In this document: positions 40,165-51,194 of the stretch, one piece after another | Layout of the letters: each line of letters opens with the position of its first letter | Numbering within the stretch: the stretch's first letter is position 1 | Origin: Candidatus Multivorans sp. | Lineage (GTDB): Bacteria; Acidobacteriota; Thermoanaerobaculia; Multivoradales; Multivoraceae | Assembly: GCA_965247095.1 (NCBI GenBank) | Contig: OZ251997.1 | Span: 1,888,001 to 1,952,000, forward strand | Reading direction: 5' to 3' | DNA length: 64,000 bases | Program-made: the position numbers and the translations under genes | The notes under the pieces: model-generated | Databases searched by the model: none | The model's input: only the letters and a program-made list of their open reading frames with translations | Told to the model about the DNA's origin: nothing

Positions 40165-43100
40165 ATGCCGCAACTCGAACGCGTCCTGATCAGCAACCGC
40201 GGCGAGATCGCCATCCGCATCGTCAAGGCCGCCTCGGCGCTGGGCATGGAATCGGTGAGCGTCTATCCAGCCGCCGACTCGCTGTCGCTCCACACCCGCC
40301 TCGCGACATCGGCCGTCGAGATCGGAAACGGCGTTCCCGACGATCCTGTGGCCGCCTATCTCGACGCGGAGGCGCTGGTGGCGGCGGCCCACGGGAGCGG
40401 CTGCGACTGCGTCCACCCCGGCTACGGGTTCCTGGCCGAGAACGCCGGATTCGCCGAGCGGTGCGCCGATGCCGGACTGGTCTTCGTGGGACCGCCGCCG
40501 GCGGCGCTCTCGCTGTTCGGCGACAAGGTGCGCTCCCGCCAGCTCGCGGCCTCTCTCGACATCCCGGTGGTTCCCGGCAGCGACGGCCCACTCGAGTCCC
40601 CGGCCGACGCGGTGGATCTGGCCGCCCTGCTCGGCTACCCGGTGATGCTGAAGGCGGCTGCCGGCGGAGGCGGCCGCGGCATGCGCAGAGTCGCGTCCGC
40701 CGGGGCGATGACCGAGGCGTTCGCCCGCTGCCGGAGCGAGGCCGAGGCCGCCTTCGGCAACGGCGCACTGTTCGTCGAGAAGCTCATCGAGCGCCCGCGC
40801 CACATCGAAGTCCAGGTTCTCGCCGATGGGGACGGCAACGTCGTCCACCTGCACGAGCGGGACTGCTCGGTCCAGTTGCGCAACCAGAAGGTGATCGAGA
40901 CGGCGCCGGCGCCGGGCCTCGACGCCGACCTGCGGGACCGCATCCTCGCCGACGCGGTCAAGCTGGTCGCGGCTGCCGGCTACGCGAACGCCGGCACGGT
41001 CGAGTTCCTGGTCGTGCCCGAGACCGGCGAGCACTTCTTCATCGAGTGCAACGCGCGCATCCAGGTCGAACACACCGTCACCGAGCAGGTCACCGGCATC
41101 GACCTCGTCGAGGCCCAGTTCCGGATCGCCGCCGGCGCCACGCTCGCTGCCCTCGGTCTCGGTAGCCAGGGCGCGGTCGGCGCGCCGCGCGGCGCCGCCG
41201 TCCAGGCCCGGGTGGTCGCCCGCGGCGCGGGGACGCTGAGCGGCTACAAGGAGCCCACCGGCCCCGGCGTACGCGTCGACGGCTGCGGCTACGTCGGCTA
41301 CGCGCCGCCACCCCAGTTCGACCCGCTGCTCGCCAAGGTCATCGGGGCGAGTTCCTCGTCGTTCGCTTCCGGTCACGCCTCCTACGTCGCCGCGGTCGAC
41401 CGCCTTCTCCGGGCCCTGGACGAGTTCCATATCGGCGGTCTCGCCACCAACCTGAATCAACTGAAGGCGATCCTCGCCCACCCCGCGGTCCGCGCCGGCG
41501 ACGCACGGACCACGCTTCTCGGCGAACACCCGGACCTGCTCTCCCCCGCCGCCGACGCCGGCGGCAACGGCGCCCTGACCCTGCTGCGGCAGCAGGCGAC
41601 GCTGGCGGGCGTTTCCGTGGCGGGCGGCGCCGGCATGCAGCCCACCGCGAGGTCGACGGCCACGGAACTCCCGGTCGGACCAGGCCAGCAAGCCGTCGCC
41701 TGCCCCATGGCCGGATCGATCCTGGAGATCCGGGTCGCCGAGGGCGACCGCGTGGCCGCCGGCGAAGCGCTGCTAGTCGTCAGCGCGATGAAGATGGAGT
41801 CCCAGGTTGCCGCGCCGCTGAGCGGCACGGTGACGGCGCTCCAGCCGCTGACGGCCGGCGACACGGTCGAGGCGGGGCAGGTCGTCGCGGTCATCGCGCC
41901 CGCTGAGGGCGCGACAAGCGAGCCGCGGGCGGAGCACCGAGCCGACACTTGGGCGCCGCTGCTCGAGGATGTCGCCACGATGCAGGCCCTGGCGCACAAG
42001 CGGCTGGCGCCCGGCTCCGACGAGCGCGGCGTGGTGCGCCAGCGCAGCCGCGGCAAGTTGACCTGCCGGGAGCGCATCGACCTCCTGTTCGACGACGGCA
42101 GCTTCCACGAGATCGGAAGCATCGCGGGCTTTGCTTCGTACGACGAGAGCGGAGCGATCGTCGACTTCACGCCCGCCAACCACGTCGGCGGCTGGGGCCG
42201 AATCGAGAGCCGCACGGCCGTCGTCTGCGCCGACGACTTCACCTCCCGTGGCGGCCACGCGGACGGCGCGATCGGGGAGAAGAGCCGCCACCTCGACCGG
42301 CTGGCCCTGGAGATGCGGGTGCCCTCGGTCCGTCTGCTCGACGGCTCGTCCGGCGGCGGCAGCGTCGCCACGATGGTGCCGCAGCAAAGACAAGAGGGCG
42401 AAAGCAAGGCCAAGGAGAGCCGCGGCGCGATCAAGGCCGGCCGGCCCCGGGTCGCGGGCGGCGGCGGTTCCTTCCTGCCCGGCCACCTCGGCAGCACGAT
42501 GTACACGGAGCAACTGAGCACCGTGCCCGTCGTCAACCTGCTGCTCGGCAGCGTCGTCGGCATCGGCGCCGCCAAGGCCGTGCTCGGCCACTTCTCCGTC
42601 ATGGTGCGCGACATCGCGCAGTTGTTCGTCGCCGGACCTCCGGTCGTCCGCCCCGCGATGGGCTACGACATCACGAAGGAAGATCTCGGCGGCTGGCACA
42701 TCCACTGCCGCAACGGCTCGGTGGACAACCTCGCCGAGACCGAGGAGGAGGCGATGGCGCTCACCCGGCGCTTCCTGTCGTACCTGCCTTCCTCCGTCTT
42801 CGAGACGCCGCCGGTCGCGCCGCCCGATCCGAGCGACCCGACCGACCGCCGCGACGAGGAGCTGTTCAGCCTGATACCCCGCAAGCGCACCGCGACCTTC
42901 GACGTGCGCAGGGCGATCCGCCTGATGGCGGACAGGGACTCCTTCTTCGAGATCGGCCCGCTCTGGGGCACCGACCAGGTCACGGGTTTCGTGCGCATGA
43001 ACGGTCACCCGATGGGAGTCATCGCCTCCGACAGCCAGCACACCAACGGCGGCGCGCTCACCGCCGACGGCTGCCGCAAACTGACCCGCCACCTCGACCT

Positions 43101-43608
43101 CTGCGACCTCTTCCACCTGCCGGTCCTGAACCTGGTCGACAACCCCGGCTTTGCCGTCGGCCTCGAACACGAGATCACCGGCACCATCCGCTGGGGCGGC
43201 CAATGGATGATCGCCTTCTCCCAGGTCACCACGCCCATCTTCACCGTCCTCATGCGGCGCAGCTTCGGCGTCGCCGGCAACAACTACGCGACGCCGAGGG
43301 CCGAGCCGTCGATGCGCGTCGCCTGGCCCGCCGCCGACACCGGCGGCATCCCGCCCGAAGGCGGCATCGAAGCCGCCTACAAACGCCAACTCGCCCAGGC
43401 CGAGGACCCCAAGGCCCTACGCGACGAACTGATGGCACGAATCGAGAGCGCCCGCGGCCCCGTCGGCCCCCTGTCCCGCTTCCAGATCGAAGAGATGATC
43501 GACCCGCGAGACACCCGCCGGATGATCTGCGAGTGGATCGAAACGGCCTGGAAGATCGTCTCCCAGCCGGCGAGGCTGCGGCCGCGGCCGATTCAGTTCC
43601 GGCCTTGA
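40165..43608 (+). CDS. Single-chain acyl-CoA carboxylase (biotin carboxylase, BCCP and carboxyltransferase)
   Basis: SNRGEIA, HPGYGFLAEN, GGGGRGM, RIQVEH, SAMKME biotin motif, LTCRERID, DNPGF. Confidence 0.93.
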   Translation: MPQLERVLISNRGEIAIRIVKAASALGMESVSVYPAADSLSLHTRLATSAVEIGNGVPDDPVAAYLDAEALVAAAHGSGCDCVHPGYGFLAENAGFAERCADAGLVFVGPPPAALSLFGDKVRSRQLAASLDIPVVPGSDGPLESPADAVDLAALLGYPVMLKAAAGGGGRGMRRVASAGAMTEAFARCRSEAEAAFGNGALFVEKLIERPRHIEVQVLADGDGNVVHLHERDCSVQLRNQKVIETAPAPGLDADLRDRILADAVKLVAAAGYANAGTVEFLVVPETGEHFFIECNARIQVEHTVTEQVTGIDLVEAQFRIAAGATLAALGLGSQGAVGAPRGAAVQARVVARGAGTLSGYKEPTGPGVRVDGCGYVGYAPPPQFDPLLAKVIGASSSSFASGHASYVAAVDRLLRALDEFHIGGLATNLNQLKAILAHPAVRAGDARTTLLGEHPDLLSPAADAGGNGALTLLRQQATLAGVSVAGGAGMQPTARSTATELPVGPGQQAVACPMAGSILEIRVAEGDRVAAGEALLVVSAMKMESQVAAPLSGTVTALQPLTAGDTVEAGQVVAVIAPAEGATSEPRAEHRADTWAPLLEDVATMQALAHKRLAPGSDERGVVRQRSRGKLTCRERIDLLFDDGSFHEIGSIAGFASYDESGAIVDFTPANHVGGWGRIESRTAVVCADDFTSRGGHADGAIGEKSRHLDRLALEMRVPSVRLLDGSSGGGSVATMVPQQRQEGESKAKESRGAIKAGRPRVAGGGGSFLPGHLGSTMYTEQLSTVPVVNLLLGSVVGIGAAKAVLGHFSVMVRDIAQLFVAGPPVVRPAMGYDITKEDLGGWHIHCRNGSVDNLAETEEEAMALTRRFLSYLPSSVFETPPVAPPDPSDPTDRRDEELFSLIPRKRTATFDVRRAIRLMADRDSFFEIGPLWGTDQVTGFVRMNGHPMGVIASDSQHTNGGALTADGCRKLTRHLDLCDLFHLPVLNLVDNPGFAVGLEHEITGTIRWGGQWMIAFSQVTTPIFTVLMRRSFGVAGNNYATPRAEPSMRVAWPAADTGGIPPEGGIEAAYKRQLAQAEDPKALRDELMARIESARGPVGPLSRFQIEEMIDPRDTRRMICEWIETAWKIVSQPARLRPRPIQFRP

Positions 43609-43811
43609 GGGGGGCTGCGAGCTCCCCCGGCACCAACTGAGCGCGTTGAGGAGGGAATCAACCAGAGCTCGCTCAACCTCTCCGGCTCGATCGATGACCT
43701 TGGTGAAGAGATCAGCAACCTGGCCGGCCGAGCCCGTGCCCTTCACCGTCGCGCTCTCGAACTCCGGCAAGCCGCCTGAAGCCCTTGGACTTCAACGGGC
43801 CTGCCGGCCTG

Positions 43812-44135
43812 CTAGCGGCTGGCCTCGGCCAATCTGCTCCCGGAGGATGCCGGCGAAGCGGGCAGTACCTCGCGGTCGATCGCGGCCCCTTGCTTGGCCT
43901 CGACGACGGACACGTCGTAGGCCGTTTGGAGGTTCATCCACAGGACCGCTCCCGTTCCCATGTAGCGACCAAGGCGAACCGCCGTCTCCGCGGTGACGGC
44001 TCGCTCCCCGCGGAGAATCGCCGTGATTCGATTCGCCGGCACTCGGAGCGCGAGCGCCAGTTGGTTCGCAGTCATTCCTCGAGCTTCGAGTTCTGCCTTG
44101 AGAATCCGGCCCGGGTGGTTTCTCAGTCTGTTCAT
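43812..44135 (-). CDS. higA: HigA antitoxin (XRE HTH)
   Basis: HPGRILKAEL...ANQLALALRVPANRITAILRGERAVTAETAVRL...WMNLQ..YD. Confidence 0.92.
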   Translation of the reverse strand: MNRLRNHPGRILKAELEARGMTANQLALALRVPANRITAILRGERAVTAETAVRLGRYMGTGAVLWMNLQTAYDVSVVEAKQGAAIDREVLPASPASSGSRLAEASR

Positions 44136-44137
44136 CG

Positions 44138-44425
44138 TCACCCCTTGTGGTAGTCCTCGATCACGACGTCCGCAGCATCTCCGCTGGCGAACCGGAAGGT
44201 CACTCGCCATCGCGCATTGATCGTCATGGAGCTTGTGCCCTTCCGCTTTCCGCTGAGGGAGTGCAGCCGAACTGACCGTAGTTCGCGGAGCGAATCCAGC
44301 GAAGGAGCCGCATCGAGCGTGTCCAGCAGGAGCAAGGCGCGTTCATAGTCCAAGCCACGGAATCCTCGTCGACGGTTCTCCTCAAACAGACGCCGAGTCT
44401 TGCTGTCGGCGAAGGACCGGATCAC
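44138..44425 (-). CDS. higB: HigB toxin (RelE/ParE family)
   Basis: MIRSFADSKTRRLF...LHSLSG.RKG..S..IN.RWRVTFRF...VVIEDYH. Confidence 0.9.
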   Translation of the reverse strand: MIRSFADSKTRRLFEENRRRGFRGLDYERALLLLDTLDAAPSLDSLRELRSVRLHSLSGKRKGTSSMTINARWRVTFRFASGDAADVVIEDYHKG

Positions 44426-44431
44426 CCCCGC

Positions 44432-44460
44432 ATCGTAGTACGCGCCTCGTACTACGTCAA
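44432..44460 (-). promoter_or_regulatory. higBA promoter with perfect palindromic operator; probably leaderless
   Basis: Minus strand TTGACG-17bp-TACGAT, 6 nt before GTG; CGTAGTACG-N5-CGTACTACG at 44434-44456. Confidence 0.75.
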
Positions 44461-44715
44461 TCGTCAGCGCTGTCCAACAGTCCGCTCGACCCACTAAAGA
44501 CATCGGCAAGGAATCCATGCCCGCCTGGGAGGGCGAACCGATGGATCTGCGCTGCGTAACGGACGCCATGTGGTGGCCACCGCCAAACACTGCGGCGTCT
44601 GCCGGTGCGAGCCAAGCGAGAAACGGACTCGACGCTCCACGCAGTGGTGCAGTGCCGTAACATCTAACGCTCCGCTGGCTCACACACGACACGCACAGCC
44701 GAGGAGCATGCCCCG

Positions 44716-45762
44716 ATGACATCCGAAGCCCGGGAATACCTGGAGCGGGTAGCGAAAGAGAACCGCGAGGCCATCGAGGGCGGCGCGGCGCCAACCCCAA
44801 ACAAGCTGTCAGTTCGCCGCCTTCTGGCCCTGTTCGGATACGCCAAGAGGGGACGTTTGGTGGTATCCACGATCCGCAACGCTCTTGAAGACAACGGACT
44901 GCGAACGAGCCCAGACTTCGAGAGCGTCTGGATCGACCACGAGATCTCGATCGAACTCGACCGCGAGAGCACGAACGGCTGGGTAGCGGCTGCGGCCATC
45001 CAGGATCCCACAGTCCGTATCGAAGCACTCGCTGCCGCTAACCACGAGCCCGCCGTCGCTCATCCCGAAGGCCTACTGAGCGAGGCAACCACACTCATGC
45101 TGCTCAACGACTACTCCCAACTCCCCGTTACGCAGGACTGCCGAGAGATCCGCAAGATCGAGGGCATGATCAGTTGGAAGTCGATCGGTTCGCGGCTGTC
45201 ATCCGGAGTCGAGTGCGCCCGAGTCAGGGACTGCGTGAACCCGCAGGTCCGCGACGTGCGCCAGGACACCCCGCTCCTGGATGCGGTTGCCGGTATCGCC
45301 AGCAACGGCTACACGCTGGTCCGGGACTCGACGAACAAGATCGTCGGTATCGTGACGACGAGCGATCTGAGCAGGGAGTTCCTTGAACTTGCCAGCCCGT
45401 TTCTCCTGATCGGCGAGATCGAGAAGTACCTGCACACACTCGTGCATGGCCGGTTCACGAAGGACGAGATCCTGGCGGCACTGCCCGAGGGACTCACCGC
45501 CACCGGTACCGCCGACCTCACGCTCGGCGGCTACTGCCGGCTTCTCCAGAAACCCGCGAACTGGAAAAAACTGGGCCTCGAGTTCAGCCGCAAGCAGTTC
45601 GTCGCAAGGCTGGAGGCTGTCCGGGAGATACGAAACGAGGTCATGCACTTCCGCCCCGACGGCCTGGACCCGGACAAGCAGCAAGTGCTGCACGGCCTCG
45701 TCGCGTTCTTCCGCCACCTCGCGCGAATGGGCGTTGTCGACACCTCCGCGAACTCGAACTGA
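44716..45762 (+). CDS. CBS-pair protein with C-terminal HEPN (Swt1-like) RNase domain
   Basis: CBS motifs YSQLPV..GMISWKSI and VGIVTTSDL; EIEKYL...RNEVMH (RxxxxH). Confidence 0.78.
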   Translation: MTSEAREYLERVAKENREAIEGGAAPTPNKLSVRRLLALFGYAKRGRLVVSTIRNALEDNGLRTSPDFESVWIDHEISIELDRESTNGWVAAAAIQDPTVRIEALAAANHEPAVAHPEGLLSEATTLMLLNDYSQLPVTQDCREIRKIEGMISWKSIGSRLSSGVECARVRDCVNPQVRDVRQDTPLLDAVAGIASNGYTLVRDSTNKIVGIVTTSDLSREFLELASPFLLIGEIEKYLHTLVHGRFTKDEILAALPEGLTATGTADLTLGGYCRLLQKPANWKKLGLEFSRKQFVARLEAVREIRNEVMHFRPDGLDPDKQQVLHGLVAFFRHLARMGVVDTSANSN

Positions 45763-45794
45763 CCGCGCGAAAGACGAAGGAGGAGGTTCGGAAG

Positions 45795-48209
45795 ATGCAG
45801 GAGCAACCGTTCCGCGCCTGGTTGAGAGATGTCCGAGAACAGGTGGAGGGAAGCATCGCTACGCGACTCGCCGACTGCAGCCTGGTCGAGAGACACGAAG
45901 GCGATCTGGACGCCCATTGGAACGCGGACGGGCTAAGGGGGTTGCTTGACCGGCTCACGTACTCCAGGGAAGACGAACGAAACGGCAGATCTCCGGGGCA
46001 CAACGTCCCGACCAAGGGCGACCTCTACAACAACAGCGCAACGTTCAAGGCGGCCGTGAATCTCTACCGCAAGTTCCTCGACGCCCGAGGCGACGAGGGC
46101 GCGGAAGGCTCCGTTGCCCACTGCGAACGATGGGATCGGTACCTGGAGGAGGTGCGGCGCTACGTCGAGAGCGGGAAGCTGGACCGGGAGGAGATCGACT
46201 ACAAGTCGAGGATCGCCGCGAAGCTCACGAGCGCGCGAAACGCAGTGCTCGCCGGTGACGAAGACTGGTCCGATCTACTGAAGGAAGCGATCCTGGATCC
46301 AAGCAACAACCTCATTGACTTCCGGTTCGGCAAGCCAAGGCTTCGGGACTGGCTTGAGACGCAGGCTGAAGAGGCGTTCGGCGCACTAGCGGGGCTCTGG
46401 TCCGGCGAGGACATCTCGCTGGAAGACCGGATTCGCAGCTTCACCGAGAGCTTTCCGACCGACGTACTCTCTGGCACGGGGACGCGCTTGCGCGTGATCT
46501 CCGTGCTCTTGATGGCCCTCGACGCCCACCTCTACCCACCCTACAAGTTCAAGGAGTACCACAGTGCTTTCGCCCGCACCGGGCACCCGGTGCCACCTGC
46601 GGTCAACGACGAAGCCTCTCAGTACGAGCACGCCCTCGTCTTCCTGGACAAGATCATCGAGCGCGCTCGCCTAGCGGGACTCAAACGACCGAAGGACCGC
46701 CTTGAAGCGCAGTCGGTCCTGTTCGCGGTCGCCGGAGGCAGAGGAGCTGCCCCAAAGCCAGCGGACGATCGGCCTTGCTGGTTCGTGGGCGCTTCCTGGG
46801 ATGCAGGCGATCAGACGGATCGTTTCATCCGAGAGGGAATCTGGCAGAACGGCTACGAGGAGAAGTACCTGGACTATGTCAAGTCGATAGAGCCCGGGGA
46901 CCGAATTGCCATCAAGGCCACCTTCGTGAAGAAGCACGGTCTCCCCTTCGACAACAGGAGTGAAGACACCTCCACCATGGCGATCAAGGCGACCGGTGTC
47001 GTGACCGAGAACATGGGAGACGGTCGCAATCTCCGTGTGGACTGGACGCCCGCGAAACCCAGCCGCGAGTGGTACTTCTACACGTATCAGCCGACGGTCT
47101 GGAAAGTCACGCGCGATTCGGGCTGGCAGGCAGCCGCCTTGATCGATTTCACTTTCGACGGGGCGGAACAGGACCACAAGGAGTTCCTGCGCCACCGGTT
47201 CCCCGAACGCTACGCGGACGACGATCCCAACAATGACCGAACGGATTCGGACGTAGTTCGCAGCCCGGCAGAGGTCGATGTCTCGGATCTCGCCATCGAA
47301 CTCCTGTACGAACCGGGGGTTCTTCAGAACATCACGAACCTCCTGGACGACAAGCGCCAAGTCATCTTCCAGGGGCCACCCGGCACGGGGAAAACGTACG
47401 CTGCGCGCGAGCTGGCCACCTTCCTTGCAGGATCCAATGGCCAGGTCACCCTCGTCCAGTTCCACCCCTCCTACGCCTACGAGGACTTCGTGCAGGGTTA
47501 CCGGCCGACTCTGACCGCCGGTCAGGCCGGCTTTGAACTGCGCGACGGCCCGCTGGTTGCAGCGGCAGCGGCCGCCCGGACAGAGCCGGACGCCCTGCAC
47601 TTCCTGATCATCGACGAGATCAACCGGGGCAACTTGGCCAAGGTGTTCGGCGAGCTGTACTTCCTGCTCGAGTACCGCGACGAAGACATGAGGCTCCAGT
47701 ACGCCTCCACCGAGGACGAGCCGTTCAGTCTGCCCGAGAATCTCTACATCATCGGCACGATGAACACGGCCGACCGCTCGATCGCCCTGGTCGACCTGGC
47801 GCTGCGCCGACGATTCCACTTCGTCGAGTTCCATCCCGACAAGGAGCCGGTCGAGGGATTGCTCGGCCGGTGGTTGGAAAGGAACGCGCCCGAGATGGCT
47901 TGGGTGGCGGACGTCATGAGGCGAGCGAACAGCAAGCTGGATGACCGACAGGCAGCCATCGGGCCGAGCTACTTCATGAAGGAGGATCTCAACGAGGAGA
48001 AGGTCCGGCTGATCTGGGAGCACAACGTCCTGCCGTATGTGGAGGAACATCTCTACGGCGAGCCCGACCGGCTTGCCGATTTCGACCTCGGCAAGCTGCG
48101 GCGTGCAACAGAGTCCGCCGCTTCTGCCGCGGCCTCGGACAGCCGTGAAGCACCCGGAGAGCCTGACGGCGACGGGCAAGACGAAGAAGCCGCCGATGCG
48201 GGATCTTGA
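45795..48209 (+). CDS. mcrB: McrB-like AAA+ GTPase with extended multi-domain N-terminus
   Basis: GPPGTGKT, VQFHPSYAYEDFV, IIDEINRGN, GTMNTADRS (NxxD), ALRRRF; AGGAGG RBS. Confidence 0.92.
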   Translation: MQEQPFRAWLRDVREQVEGSIATRLADCSLVERHEGDLDAHWNADGLRGLLDRLTYSREDERNGRSPGHNVPTKGDLYNNSATFKAAVNLYRKFLDARGDEGAEGSVAHCERWDRYLEEVRRYVESGKLDREEIDYKSRIAAKLTSARNAVLAGDEDWSDLLKEAILDPSNNLIDFRFGKPRLRDWLETQAEEAFGALAGLWSGEDISLEDRIRSFTESFPTDVLSGTGTRLRVISVLLMALDAHLYPPYKFKEYHSAFARTGHPVPPAVNDEASQYEHALVFLDKIIERARLAGLKRPKDRLEAQSVLFAVAGGRGAAPKPADDRPCWFVGASWDAGDQTDRFIREGIWQNGYEEKYLDYVKSIEPGDRIAIKATFVKKHGLPFDNRSEDTSTMAIKATGVVTENMGDGRNLRVDWTPAKPSREWYFYTYQPTVWKVTRDSGWQAAALIDFTFDGAEQDHKEFLRHRFPERYADDDPNNDRTDSDVVRSPAEVDVSDLAIELLYEPGVLQNITNLLDDKRQVIFQGPPGTGKTYAARELATFLAGSNGQVTLVQFHPSYAYEDFVQGYRPTLTAGQAGFELRDGPLVAAAAAARTEPDALHFLIIDEINRGNLAKVFGELYFLLEYRDEDMRLQYASTEDEPFSLPENLYIIGTMNTADRSIALVDLALRRRFHFVEFHPDKEPVEGLLGRWLERNAPEMAWVADVMRRANSKLDDRQAAIGPSYFMKEDLNEEKVRLIWEHNVLPYVEEHLYGEPDRLADFDLGKLRRATESAASAAASDSREAPGEPDGDGQDEEAADAGS

Positions 48210-49416
48210 TCTCCGCGAGTGGACACCAACCGAAGAGCCGGTGTCACTCTCGGTCAAGGAACGCGACCAACTGAGGCCCGTCCTCGCGAGCATCGAACCC
48301 GCTCCCGGGACGAGCGACGCGTACTACCTCAGGCCAGGTTCCAAGGTCGGCGCGCTTGAGATCGGCGATCTCTCCGTCTCCATCGAACCCAAACTACCCA
48401 TCGGCCGCGTGCTCTACCTGGCGTCCTACGCCATGGGCGTCGATTTCCGGGAGGAGCGTTTCGACTACGTGAGGCAACCGACGCTGGTCGAGGCTCTGGT
48501 CCCGGCGCTCACCCGCGCCGCCCGACGCGCCTTTGCCCGCGGACTCCTCCACGGCTACCGGACCGAAGAAGAAGCGCTGCACACGGTCCGTGGACGCATC
48601 CGCGTCGCCGATCAGCTCCGCCGCAGGTTCGGCGTACCTCTCCCGGTCGAGGTCCGCTACGACGACTTCACCGACGACGTGCTCGCCAACCAACTCGTCA
48701 AGGCCGCAGCCGACCACCTCGGCAAGCTCCGCATCCGCTCACAACGTTCCCGGCGTGATCTCGCCTGGGTCGCCGCGACCCTGGACAACGTGAGCCTGGT
48801 CGAGTTCCCGACAAACACCATCCCCGAGGTCAAGTTCGACCGGCTGAACGAGCACTACCGGGAAGTCGTGACCCTGGCACGGCTGATCCTCCGCTGCACG
48901 TCCATCGAGACCGGGCGCGGTCGAGTGCGAGCGAACGCCTTCCTGATGGATATGAACAAAGTGTTCCAGGAGTTCGTGATGCGGGCTCTGCGCAAAGAAC
49001 TGCGACTCACCGAATCGACGTTCCCGTCCGACAGGAAGCTGTCGAGGAGGGTCTTCCTGGACGAAGGCAGAGAGTTCGGGCTTGAGCCCGACCTCTCCTG
49101 GTGGGACGGCACAACCTGTACGTTCGTCGGCGACGCGAAGTACAAGCGGGTCAAGAACGAGCGAGTCCCCAACGCCGATCTCTACCAGCTACTCGCCTAC
49201 ACCACCGCCCTCGACCTTCCCGGCGGTCTGCTGATCTACGCGGAAGGCGAACCGGGGAGTACGGTCCATCAAGTCCTCCACGCCGGCAAGCGTCTGGAAG
49301 TCGCGACGATCGACCTGTCTGGTTCAATCAGCGAGCTTCATGGCGAGATCAGCAAGTTGGCTGGCCGCGTTGAAGTCCTCCAGCGTCAGGCGGCAACTCA
49401 CAGGCAGGCGGCCTGA
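48196..49416 (+). CDS. mcrC: McrC-like PD-(D/E)xK nuclease
   Basis: RGLLHGY...VRGRI, F.MDMNKVFQEFV, EPDL...GDAKYK, DLYQLLAY; overlaps the mcrB end. Confidence 0.9.
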   Translation: MRDLDLREWTPTEEPVSLSVKERDQLRPVLASIEPAPGTSDAYYLRPGSKVGALEIGDLSVSIEPKLPIGRVLYLASYAMGVDFREERFDYVRQPTLVEALVPALTRAARRAFARGLLHGYRTEEEALHTVRGRIRVADQLRRRFGVPLPVEVRYDDFTDDVLANQLVKAAADHLGKLRIRSQRSRRDLAWVAATLDNVSLVEFPTNTIPEVKFDRLNEHYREVVTLARLILRCTSIETGRGRVRANAFLMDMNKVFQEFVMRALRKELRLTESTFPSDRKLSRRVFLDEGREFGLEPDLSWWDGTTCTFVGDAKYKRVKNERVPNADLYQLLAYTTALDLPGGLLIYAEGEPGSTVHQVLHAGKRLEVATIDLSGSISELHGEISKLAGRVEVLQRQAATHRQAA

Positions 49417-49494
49417 GGCTGATCCACGCAGCGAGCGGGCTAGCCGTCCGGGGGTAAAGGCCTGCCCCCGCTCTACGCGAAGGCTCCTCTTCTC

Positions 49495-49524
49495 TTGACA
49501 CGCCTCATCGCCCTCGCCTATCCT
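49495..49524 (+). promoter_or_regulatory. Sigma70-like promoter of the DUF3800 unit
   Basis: TTGACA-18bp-TATCCT. Confidence 0.7.
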
Positions 49525-49530
49525 CCTCCC

Positions 49531-49590
49531 TGAGGCGCAAGGCTCTGCCTTACCCTCCTTCCGAGGCCCACGCTACGGCGTGGGCTTTCG
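49531..49590 (+). ncRNA. Putative DUF3800-associated structured RNA: bulged hairpin plus terminator-like hairpin
   Basis: GAGG-C-GCAAGGC-TCT-GCCTTAC-CCTC (49532-49557), then AGGCCCACGC-TACG-GCGTGGGCTT (49564-49587). Confidence 0.55.
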
Positions 49591-49607
49591 TGCATCCTGG
49601 GAGTCCT

Positions 49608-50408
49608 GTGACCTTCCTAGCCTACCTTGACGAGTTCGGGCATATCGGTCCCTACGTCAGTCGCGGGGACCGCAGATACAAGAGCAGCCCGGTGTTCGGG
49701 TTCGCCGGCTACGTCCTTCCCGCAGATCAGGTGCGAGGATTCGGGACTTGGTTCTTCCAACGCAAGTGCGAACTCCTGGACTTCGAGATTCGGCGCTCCG
49801 GCCGACACCCCGCATTATGGGAGAAGAAAGGTGCCAGCCTCTACACCGTGACGAACGTCACGAAGTACCGGCAACTCCGGCTCTTCACGAACCGCCTCTT
49901 CAACAAGATCGCGAGACTAGGTGGCTTCGTACTCTACGTCGGCGTTGAGAAGACCGAGCCTCACACACAGCACGACTCGAAGGACCTGTACGTTCGCGTC
50001 CTTCTTGAGGCAATCAAGCGAATCGACCAGTTCTGCATGGATGACCGCAGGCCGCCGGACAACTTTCTGCTAGCTCTGGACGAACACGAGCAGCGTTCTG
50101 ACCTGCTCACCCAGGTATCGCAAGCGATGTACGGGGGAACATCACCTCGGCGCCGGCTAGTCGAACCGCCATTCCACCTGGAGAGTCACCGCTATCAGAC
50201 CGTACAAGCCGCGGACTGGATATGCGGGCTGGTCGGGCGTCTGGGAGCATTCTGGGCAGATCCCGAAGGCTACCCCGAGAACGAACTGTTCTTCCGCTAC
50301 TTCGGGCACCGCCTCAACCAGGTCAGCCGGCGCAGTGGAATTCGCATCGCCGTGGCTCAGCCAGGAAGCAGCTCCGCCGTTCAACGCCTTGCCAATGGCC
50401 AAACCTAA
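49608..50408 (+). CDS. DUF3800-like protein (RNase H-like fold)
   Basis: N-terminal YLDEFG, WEKKG, C-terminal ESH...VQAADWICGL; GGGAG RBS before GTG. Confidence 0.82.
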   Translation: MTFLAYLDEFGHIGPYVSRGDRRYKSSPVFGFAGYVLPADQVRGFGTWFFQRKCELLDFEIRRSGRHPALWEKKGASLYTVTNVTKYRQLRLFTNRLFNKIARLGGFVLYVGVEKTEPHTQHDSKDLYVRVLLEAIKRIDQFCMDDRRPPDNFLLALDEHEQRSDLLTQVSQAMYGGTSPRRRLVEPPFHLESHRYQTVQAADWICGLVGRLGAFWADPEGYPENELFFRYFGHRLNQVSRRSGIRIAVAQPGSSSAVQRLANGQT

Positions 50409-50450
50409 CGTGGTAGCGGCATGTGGCAACGTCCTGTCGTGAAGGAACAC

Positions 50451-51194
50451 ATGCGCCAACTCACCGACTACCGCGTTCTGACGTTTGACTGCTACGGCAC
50501 CCTGATCGACTGGGAAACCGGGATCTGGGACGCGTTGCAGCCGCTGATCATGCGGAACCGGGGCGCCGAGGTCACCCGCGAGGCCGCGCTGCTTGCGTTC
50601 GGGCAGGGCGAGAGCCTTCAGGAGCAGGAGACGCCCGGGTTGCTCTACCCCGAGCTGCTGGCTCGCGTGCATCGGCGCATCGCGGACAGCCTCGGCATGC
50701 AATCCGACCCGCAGCTCGACGAGGTGTTCGGCGCCTCGGTGCCGGACTGGCCGGCGTTTCCGGACACCGCGGACGCGTTGCGGGTCCTCAAGCGGCACTT
50801 CCGGCTGGTCATCCTGTCCAACGTGCACCGGGACGGCATCGCGGGGTCGAACCGCAAGCTCGGGGTCGAGTTCGACGCGATCTACACGGCCGAGGACATC
50901 GGCTCCTACAAGCCGGCCGACGCGAACTTCGAGTACTTGCTCGCCCATCTCGCGTCCGACTTCGGGCTCGACCGATCGAATGTCCTGCACACCGCGCAGA
51001 GCCTGCACCATGACCATGTGCCGGCGAACCGGTTCGGACTCGCCAACGCCTGGATCGACCGGCAGCGCCTGTCCGAGGGCGGGAGTTGGGGCGCTACGGA
51101 CCGCGTCCAGACGATGCCGACCACCGATTTCGTGTTCTTCTCGATGGGCGAGATGGCGGAAGCCGTAGCGGAGTGCGCGAACGCCGAGACCTGA
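50451..51194 (+). CDS. HAD-superfamily hydrolase (haloacid dehalogenase type II-like)
   Basis: TFDCYGTLIDWE, LSN, SYKP, HTAQSLHHDH. Confidence 0.9.
   Translation: MRQLTDYRVLTFDCYGTLIDWETGIWDALQPLIMRNRGAEVTREAALLAFGQGESLQEQETPGLLYPELLARVHRRIADSLGMQSDPQLDEVFGASVPDWPAFPDTADALRVLKRHFRLVILSNVHRDGIAGSNRKLGVEFDAIYTAEDIGSYKPADANFEYLLAHLASDFGLDRSNVLHTAQSLHHDHVPANRFGLANAWIDRQRLSEGGSWGATDRVQTMPTTDFVFFSMGEMAEAVAECANAET

Follow-up and report, generated by a model that had tools for sequence, protein, structure and literature searches.

The window, a stretch of 64,000 nucleotides of the Candidatus Multivorans sp. genome (contig OZ251997.1, positions 1,888,001 to 1,952,000), encodes a 348-aa protein that combines a CBS pair with a C-terminal HEPN-like domain, and this gene is followed at a short distance, on the same strand, by mcrB and mcrC. 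The gene is a member of DS-11, a published single-gene anti-phage family. The locus is probably the site at which a stand-alone DS-11 protein has been stacked with a separable McrBC system in a lineage-specific variable hotspot, and not a new coupled system. The coordinates, the 32-nt gap, the strong ribosome-binding site and the mcrB-mcrC overlap reported in a preceding sequence-only reading of this DNA are all borne out by the list of open reading frames (ORFs) and by the sequence itself. The elements of the locus are as follows.

44716-45762, plus strand: DS-11-family CBS-HEPN anti-phage gene (predicted), 348 aa; NF053863 match; AlphaFold2 (AF2) model with a predicted local distance difference test score (pLDDT) of 85.9
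44716-44970, plus strand: N-terminal domain, residues ~1-85 (AF2 model, family conservation)
45028-45381, plus strand: CBS pair, residues ~105-222 (Pfam, profile matches, Foldseek)
45382-45735, plus strand: HEPN-like helical domain, residues ~223-340 (domain model, VIA-align)
45631-45648, plus strand: RNEVMH, the Rx4H HEPN motif, residues 306-311 (alignment conservation)
45763-45794, plus strand: 32-nt spacer with the mcrB Shine-Dalgarno sequence (sequence reading)
45795-48209, plus strand: mcrB, 804 aa, a variable N-terminal region of ~500 aa and an AAA+ GTPase
48196-49416, plus strand: mcrC, 406 aa from the 48196 start (PF10117)

Membership in the DS-11 family

The 348-aa protein matches the NCBIfam model NF053863 ("DS11_antiphage, CBS domain-containing anti-phage protein") at E 1.8e-94 with 316.3 bits; the model is an equivalog with a curated cut-off of 260 bits, and its positions 1-304 of 305 cover residues 34-331 of the window protein. 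DS-11 is described (DeWeirdt et al., DefensePredictor, Science 2026; PMC13092281) as a one-protein CBS-plus-HEPN system that protects E. coli from phage. According to that account, the CBS substitution Y157A and HEPN catalytic mutations each abolish defence by the E. coli protein, and the ligand would be of adenine type.

The window protein shares 36% identity, over its residues 1-339, with an E. coli relative named "CBS domain-containing anti-phage protein" in RefSeq. Y133 of the window protein aligns with E. coli Y157, and RNEVMH aligns with E. coli RNDVMH; the RefSeq name and the matching residue numbering identify this E. coli protein, presumably, as the published DS-11. Each DS-11 sequence characteristic that could be checked (score, CBS aromatic, Rx4H) is present in the window protein, which reads as a new and divergent member of a known single-gene defence family. 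The window genome, a single 4.6-Mb contig, holds one DS-11 copy by NF053863 profile search.

The sequence-only reading had proposed a CBS-regulated HEPN defence protein, and the proposal holds: the NF053863 cut-off is exceeded and such a protein has been published as DS-11. Its suspicion that CBS-HEPN fusions might already be catalogued was also correct; the 2013 HEPN census (Anantharaman et al. 2013, PMC3710099) lists them. Full-text literature provided no further paper on CBS-HEPN defence. PADLOC-DB 2023, a library older than DS-11, has no match for the CBS-HEPN protein or for McrC. A tblastn search of a phage collection also returned no match.

Domain architecture of the CBS-HEPN protein

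The two features that had been read from the letters alone, the CBS pair and the RNEVMH motif, are both confirmed. Pfam places a CBS domain at residues 170-223 (E 4e-9), a profile built from 26 homologues matches solved CBS pairs among the PDB sequences at positions ~107-220, and Foldseek, queried with the whole-protein AF2 model, returns CBS pairs (best E 1.8e-7, template modelling score to the target ≤0.83). All 26 aligned homologues have Y or F at the Y133 position. None of R303, R306, N307 and H311 varies among the window protein and the 25 homologues of 41-89% identity aligned with it; since R306, N307 and H311 remain invariant down to 41% identity, RNEVMH is not a chance match.

The C-terminal domain folded by itself is all-helical (pLDDT 89.3, predicted template modelling score 0.81). 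Aligned to 48,161 chains with VIA-align, it generates top rows that are rich in HEPN proteins, at Z 5-7.1; rows with HEPN in the entry title are 2hsb (Z 7.0), 7ae2 (6.2) and 8xdj (5.8). Other rows we take to be HEPN proteins as well: AbiF 8vz6 (6.7), Csm6 4rgp and 8jbc, AbiA 8oz7 and LsoA 5hy3. Two further rows, 1v4a and 3l0i, are classed under HEPN in PMC3710099. Foldseek against the PDB finds nothing at E ≤ 0.001 for the same domain model; Pfam, at E up to 10 and with the whole protein as well as residues 215-348 alone, finds no HEPN family; the PDB profile search retrieves CBS proteins only, and no solved DS-11 or HEPN relative. The modelled domain is supportive of a HEPN fold for the C-terminus, not decisive.

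The N-terminal domain is modelled as a long helix with a small alpha/beta unit and is followed by a low-confidence linker (residues 86-94). It has no Pfam match; its residues R45 and F68 are invariant across the family alignment.

Linkage to McrBC across the family

Neighbours of DS-11 were surveyed at the best 80 of its 458 genome relatives, by tblastn with the window McrB and McrC and by Pfam scans of 289 flanking ORFs (at most 2 per side, of at least 100 aa) together with 13 extra ones for five loci. Intact McrB and McrC lie directly downstream of DS-11 at 6 of the 80 loci (L001, L002, L003, L006, L008, L009); each of these DS-11 proteins is at least 69% identical to that of the window, and all six lie at one slot. 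The nine closest relatives (65-82% identity) include all six; the rest of the nine are L005 and L007, which have McrBC fragments only, and L004, which is in another genomic context. None of the 71 other loci in this sample (38-52% identity) has intact McrBC beside DS-11; at one of them, L023, an McrB-like ATPase is located ~6 kb from the DS-11 homologue, and L019, L026, L049, L060, L061 and L069 are short, little-informative contigs. The link to McrBC on which the sequence-only reading was built is accordingly real in six close relatives but narrow, and the anticipated recurrence of mcrBC next to homologues does not extend beyond one lineage and one slot. Missing enrichment next to mcrBC was among the outcomes that this reading itself had named as refuting, and on that count the survey speaks against it.

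The neighbours of the distant homologues are diverse, and Pfam scans identify many of them as metabolic genes. Some encode transposases, Eco57I-type methylases, a TIR protein, DndB with HEPN_Swt1, or Mrr/ResIII; ApeA, Cas3/Cse1, BREX PglZ/BrxL, AbiEii and Uma2 are found as well. Restriction, BREX, CRISPR, Abi or transposase neighbours occur at about one quarter of the homologue loci. The E. coli family member stands next to an integrase fragment as a singleton, and 129 of 5426 complete genomes carry it. A copy on a Rhizobium plasmid is surrounded by NYN, PIN-like and ATP-binding genes, with no McrBC nearby. Singleton homologues lend indirect support to the view that the gene suffices for defence by itself, as is reported for the E. 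coli gene.

Individual neighbourhoods merit separate mention. A pair of DndB-like genes, of which one carries a HEPN_Swt1 domain at its N-terminus, is found near a DS-11 homologue at L016:4916-7743; an Mrr/ResIII/methylase fusion and an ApeA-HEPN gene at L024:3284-10877; BREX PglZ/BrxL at L047:2974-7867; and Cas3/Cse1 at L036:9138-13398. At L004, which is 75% identical to the window DS-11 and off the slot, a 471-aa ORF without Pfam match (L004:9060-10475) starts ~20 nt after DS-11 on the same strand, and an AAA_21 ATPase is encoded farther downstream.

The slot within the genus

DS-11 and McrBC lie in the window within a low-GC cargo island (~43.7-50.4 kb) that also holds higBA and a DUF3800 gene: the GC fraction is 0.60-0.65 within 43.7-50.4 kb, compared with ~0.70 in the flanks. 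The other genes of the island and its flanks are these.

40165-43608: carboxylase gene (biotin carboxylase/carboxyltransferase), the slot's upstream flank
43812-44210, minus strand: higA, upstream of DS-11 and divergent from it; the higBA pair has HTH_3 and HigB-like_toxin Pfam matches
44138 to ~44500, minus strand: higB, a toxin-antitoxin pair with higA
49590-50408, plus strand: DUF3800 gene, the last cargo gene of the island (PF12686 at 7.8e-13)
50421-51194: HAD gene, the slot's downstream flank

The DS-11 cut-off is exceeded in 12 of 301 genomes of the class, and all 12 belong to the window's genus (12 of its 32 genomes, the window's included). PF10117 is found in 26 of the 32, and McrC of the window type (174-189 bits) in 19. 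In 5 of these 19 (G000, which is the window genome, G153, G125, G181 and G029) DS-11 is located ~3 kb upstream of McrC. In the other 14, McrB-McrC occupies the same slot, HAD, Ppx and aldolase genes come next, and DS-11 is missing from the locus. The carboxylase gene is on the other side in 13 of the 14; the remaining contig, L102, begins too late to show it. DS-11 is absent from the whole genome in ten of these 14, and in 4 it is found at another locus as a divergent copy (38-52% identity). Since 14 of the 19 slots have McrBC and no DS-11, McrBC is the common resident and DS-11 the occasional first gene.

The interval between the carboxylase and HAD genes (43609-50420) is a genus-wide variable slot of lower GC, with cargo that differs by species: McrBC with or without DS-11, HigBA, DUF3800, a DNA methylase (L008), an AAA_14/DUF4143 ATPase (L105) and unannotated ORFs. 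The ORFs in the carboxylase-mcrB gap of DS-11-less loci are mostly without Pfam match, apart from AAA_14/DUF4143 at L105 and a weak Hjc match at L107. HigBA is upstream of DS-11 in the window but downstream of mcrC in most relatives. A contig of run X6 joins position 44162 to 50450, skipping 6287 nt and replacing them with 22 other letters; the shorter side of this joint is a weak 30 letters, and the joint probably represents a related strain in which higBA adjoins the HAD gene. DUF3800 also follows mcrC in L109 and L111, with a remnant after DS-11 in L005, and is apparently one more optional part of the slot's cargo. At other loci the genus holds at least 2 further divergent DS-11 types of 38-52% identity to that of the window (L112, L113, L114, L013, L027); G053 has two DS-11 copies and G169 one with an internal TAA.

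The junction, its transcription and its decay

The DS-11 stop codon (45762) and the mcrB ATG (45795) are separated by a 32-nt gap in which a Shine-Dalgarno run, GAAGGAGGAGG, lies just before the ATG. The mcrC reading frame, which ends at 49416, has possible starts at 48037 and at 48196, for overlaps with mcrB of 173 nt and 14 nt, respectively; the start at 48196 is most likely the one used, because relatives align from its residue 1. A consensus scan of the plus strand between the three genes shows no promoter-like or terminator-like site, which is weak evidence and no more than compatible with co-transcription; the same scan places a promoter-like site at 49495-49524, ahead of the DUF3800 gene. 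Exact-match contigs of metatranscriptomic run X1, for which DNA carry-over is possible, fall within DS-11 (44891-45154), mcrB (46694-46844) and DUF3800 (49654-49820); no X1 contig spans the DS-11/mcrB junction. DS-11 and McrBC are probably co-transcribed in the window genome.

The DNA of the junction aligns continuously in L001, L002, L003 and L008, with a spacer of 32-33 nt, so that the junction probably arose once. Either module can also be found decayed. L005 has an intact DS-11 and has retained the spacer and the first mcrB bases, with a stop-containing mcrB fragment upstream, and in L007 an intact DS-11 lies beside McrBC remnants only. Conversely, the DS-11 gene of L009 has suffered an in-frame deletion of the Rx4H region beside an intact McrBC, and that of L008, also beside an intact McrBC, has lost residues 1-103 and is preceded by an inserted DNA methylase gene. 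L103 and L109 have no DS-11, and ~25 nt just before mcrB resemble the DS-11 3' end, which is suggestive, not proof. A tblastn search for DS-11 remnants at weak threshold in 14 DS-11-less McrBC loci returned only noise (E 2-6).

Trees of McrC and of the flanking carboxylase bear on the same point. The McrC tree, of 21 sequences, requires 5 changes for DS-11 linkage, of which at least 4 are forced by well-supported branches; with shuffled labels the mean is 5.9, and 140 of 500 shuffles are as low. The carboxylase tree, of 20 sequences, requires 7 changes for DS-11 presence; shuffling of the McrBC-only label gives 6.5 on average, with a count as low in 410 of 500 shuffles. These counts lie near their shuffled means, and DS-11 linkage is therefore not clustered on either tree. 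Left out of both were L115-L117 (duplicates of L004, L005 and L007) and L004 and L112-L114 (which have no such genes), and left out of the carboxylase tree only were L009, L102 and L109, where the gene is incomplete. The carboxylases closest to that of the window (97%, 96% and 95% identity) belong to relatives without DS-11. Most simply read, these facts point to an ancestral cassette from which one module or the other was lost repeatedly and independently, which is how separable modules behave.

Stacked modules or a coupled system

The mechanism that suggests itself for the DS-11 protein of the window is that of its E. coli relative: family score, the match of Y133 with Y157 and the invariance of R306 and H311 lead us to infer that the two work alike. 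The CBS pair would bind an adenine-containing ligand and thereby control the C-terminal HEPN ribonuclease, which would probably act as a dimer; activation on infection would cause RNA cleavage that arrests the phage, likely at the expense of the host cell. McrBC is the usual resident of the slot, and DS-11 an accessory that is gained and lost. There is no indication of any functional dependence of the two on each other.

Some facts weigh against this view. The neighbour count rests on the best 80 of 458 relatives; the window protein and the E. coli family member share only 36% identity; the evidence for the HEPN fold is moderate, as Z is at most 7.1 and stays under the value below which VIA-align advises caution with helical bundles; and no Pfam HEPN model matches the window protein. 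Because the junction is homologous in four loci and has no terminator-like site, the pair was probably inherited as one transcription unit, and such inheritance also fits a functional pairing.

The functional pairing that the sequence-only reading had in mind is a guard or back-up role: the CBS-HEPN protein would respond with abortive RNA cleavage on sensing that McrBC fails or is inhibited, or that an associated nucleotide change occurs, as PrrC does for EcoprrI. The layout of the locus speaks for such an arrangement, with DS-11 and mcrB on the same strand, 32 nt apart, and a strong ribosome-binding site and no terminator-like site between them; the homologous junction in four relatives, and the location of DS-11, intact or damaged, ahead of intact McrBC in 7 loci, the window included, conform to it, and HEPN-McrBC associations have precedents (DUF4145 with McrB/C, noted in PMC3710099; the CoCoNuTs of PMC11090510). 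However, not one of the 71 more distant homologues lies beside McrBC, 14 of 19 same-slot McrBC loci lack DS-11, and each partner is found intact beside the decayed or deleted other. The McrC sequences linked to DS-11 form no clade, and DS-11 has been published as a one-protein system (PMC13092281). The N-terminal domain, a potential mediator of coupling, is conserved in unlinked homologues as well. With linkage at 6 of 80 surveyed and 5 of 19 same-slot loci, and with the E. coli member a singleton, the PrrC-like role is not sustained and is judged unlikely.

A related possibility, still more doubtful, is a two-tier cassette that would have begun in this lineage as one co-transcribed unit, in keeping with the apparently single origin of the junction. 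McrBC would be the first to act, on modified phage DNA, and the CBS-HEPN protein would read a nucleotide signal of an overwhelmed or inhibited McrBC and shut the cell down. If that were true, DS-11 would have been lost time and again because its suicidal arm is costly, and not because the two modules are functionally independent.

That the CBS-HEPN protein is instead a non-immune, nucleotide-responsive regulator of RNA turnover, its position in the island being incidental, is very improbable: many homologues do reside among metabolic genes outside defence islands, and ligand-controlled RNA stability was proposed for CBS-HEPN fusions in 2013 (PMC3710099), but the score exceeds the cut-off of an equivalog built for a validated defence protein, the gene shares a low-GC cargo island with HigBA, McrBC and DUF3800, its spread is patchy, as that of accessory defence genes typically is (the cut-off is exceeded in 12 of 32 genomes of the genus and in 12 of 301 of the class), and restriction, BREX, CRISPR, Abi or transposase genes adjoin it at about one quarter of the homologue loci.

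The McrBC genes

By their domain content, mcrB and mcrC are predicted to encode a canonical, modification-dependent McrBC (type IV restriction) system. The mcrB product has an AAA_5 match at residues 523-674 (6e-22, Pfam), matches the solved E. coli McrB chain 6hz4 at 1.3e-47 and carries NTAD, an NxxD signature; the mcrC product is a full match to PF10117 (1.2e-53) and matches NCBIfam McrC at 1.2e-28 with 100 bits, short of the equivalog cut-off of 338. Both the McrB and the McrC equivalog scores fall under their NCBIfam cut-offs, and the system is therefore a divergent member, not an E. coli orthologue.

Residues 1-500 of McrB (45795-47294) have no Pfam match. This N-terminal region of ~500 aa varies more between orthologous slots than any other part of the locus (30-66% identity), and an internal segment (~residues 95-312) is duplicated in L009, L099, L102, L105 and L107. 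In the ESM Atlas the N-terminal 495 residues lead to DUF8425, DUF8426 and EVE-type clusters with scores of 0.77-0.84, to be regarded as leads only. The region is probably a diversifying reader of modified bases. Outside the window, the genome has a second, partial PF10117 match (G000:C1:2441750-2442127, model positions 190-318) in a 201-aa frame, possibly a McrC fragment.

Comparison with known systems

The discovery value of the locus is limited: family, domains and defence role are published, and the adjacency to McrBC is restricted to one lineage. Its value is rather that of a natural experiment, a slot in one genus at which DS-11 joins or leaves a resident McrBC, with deletion scars and decay on both sides, and it illustrates how defence modules are stacked and shed. 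A divergent DS-11, 36% identical to the E. coli gene, could in addition help to identify the CBS ligand.

The closest likeness is with DS-11 itself: the order of N-terminal region, CBS pair and HEPN domain, the adenine-contacting aromatic residue (Y157 in E. coli, Y133 in the window) and the Rx4H motif are shared. The window protein departs from its E. coli relative in sequence (36% identity) and in setting: mcrBC follows the window gene after 32 nt, but the E. coli gene stands alone, and the window's host belongs to a high-GC uncultured lineage, with Thermoanaerobaculia/Acidobacteriota metagenome-assembled genomes as its nearest named relatives.

PrrC/EcoprrI offers what we take to be a HEPN-type ribonuclease encoded with a restriction system. 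The sensor of the window protein, in contrast, is a CBS pair; Pfam detects no ABC-type ATPase domain in it, and in place of a conserved linkage to the restriction system one finds the sporadic one of DS-11 and McrBC (6 of 80 loci; 5 of 19 at the same slot). PrrC is also cited as an analogy in PMC3710099. The CBS(+HD)-HEPN fusions of the Swt1/Abi2 group, as that census presents them, resemble the window protein in joining a CBS sensor to an active Rx4-6H HEPN domain with a predicted response to nucleotides; the window protein differs in having no HD domain, and Pfam HEPN_Swt1 is silent on it even at E up to 10.

The CoCoNuT systems (Bell et al. 2024, PMC11090510) are likewise described as encoding McrB and McrC homologues together with HEPN ribonucleases. 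As defined in that paper, they are recognised by an NxD variant of the McrB signature, by coiled coils and by tandem nucleases; their HEPN partners are of another build than the window protein. The window McrB, in contrast, has NTAD (NxxD) and not NxD, its McrC is a full PF10117 match, and its HEPN domain is fused to CBS in a separate gene, a combination for which the main text of PMC11090510, with 0 occurrences of "CBS", offers no counterpart by that name.

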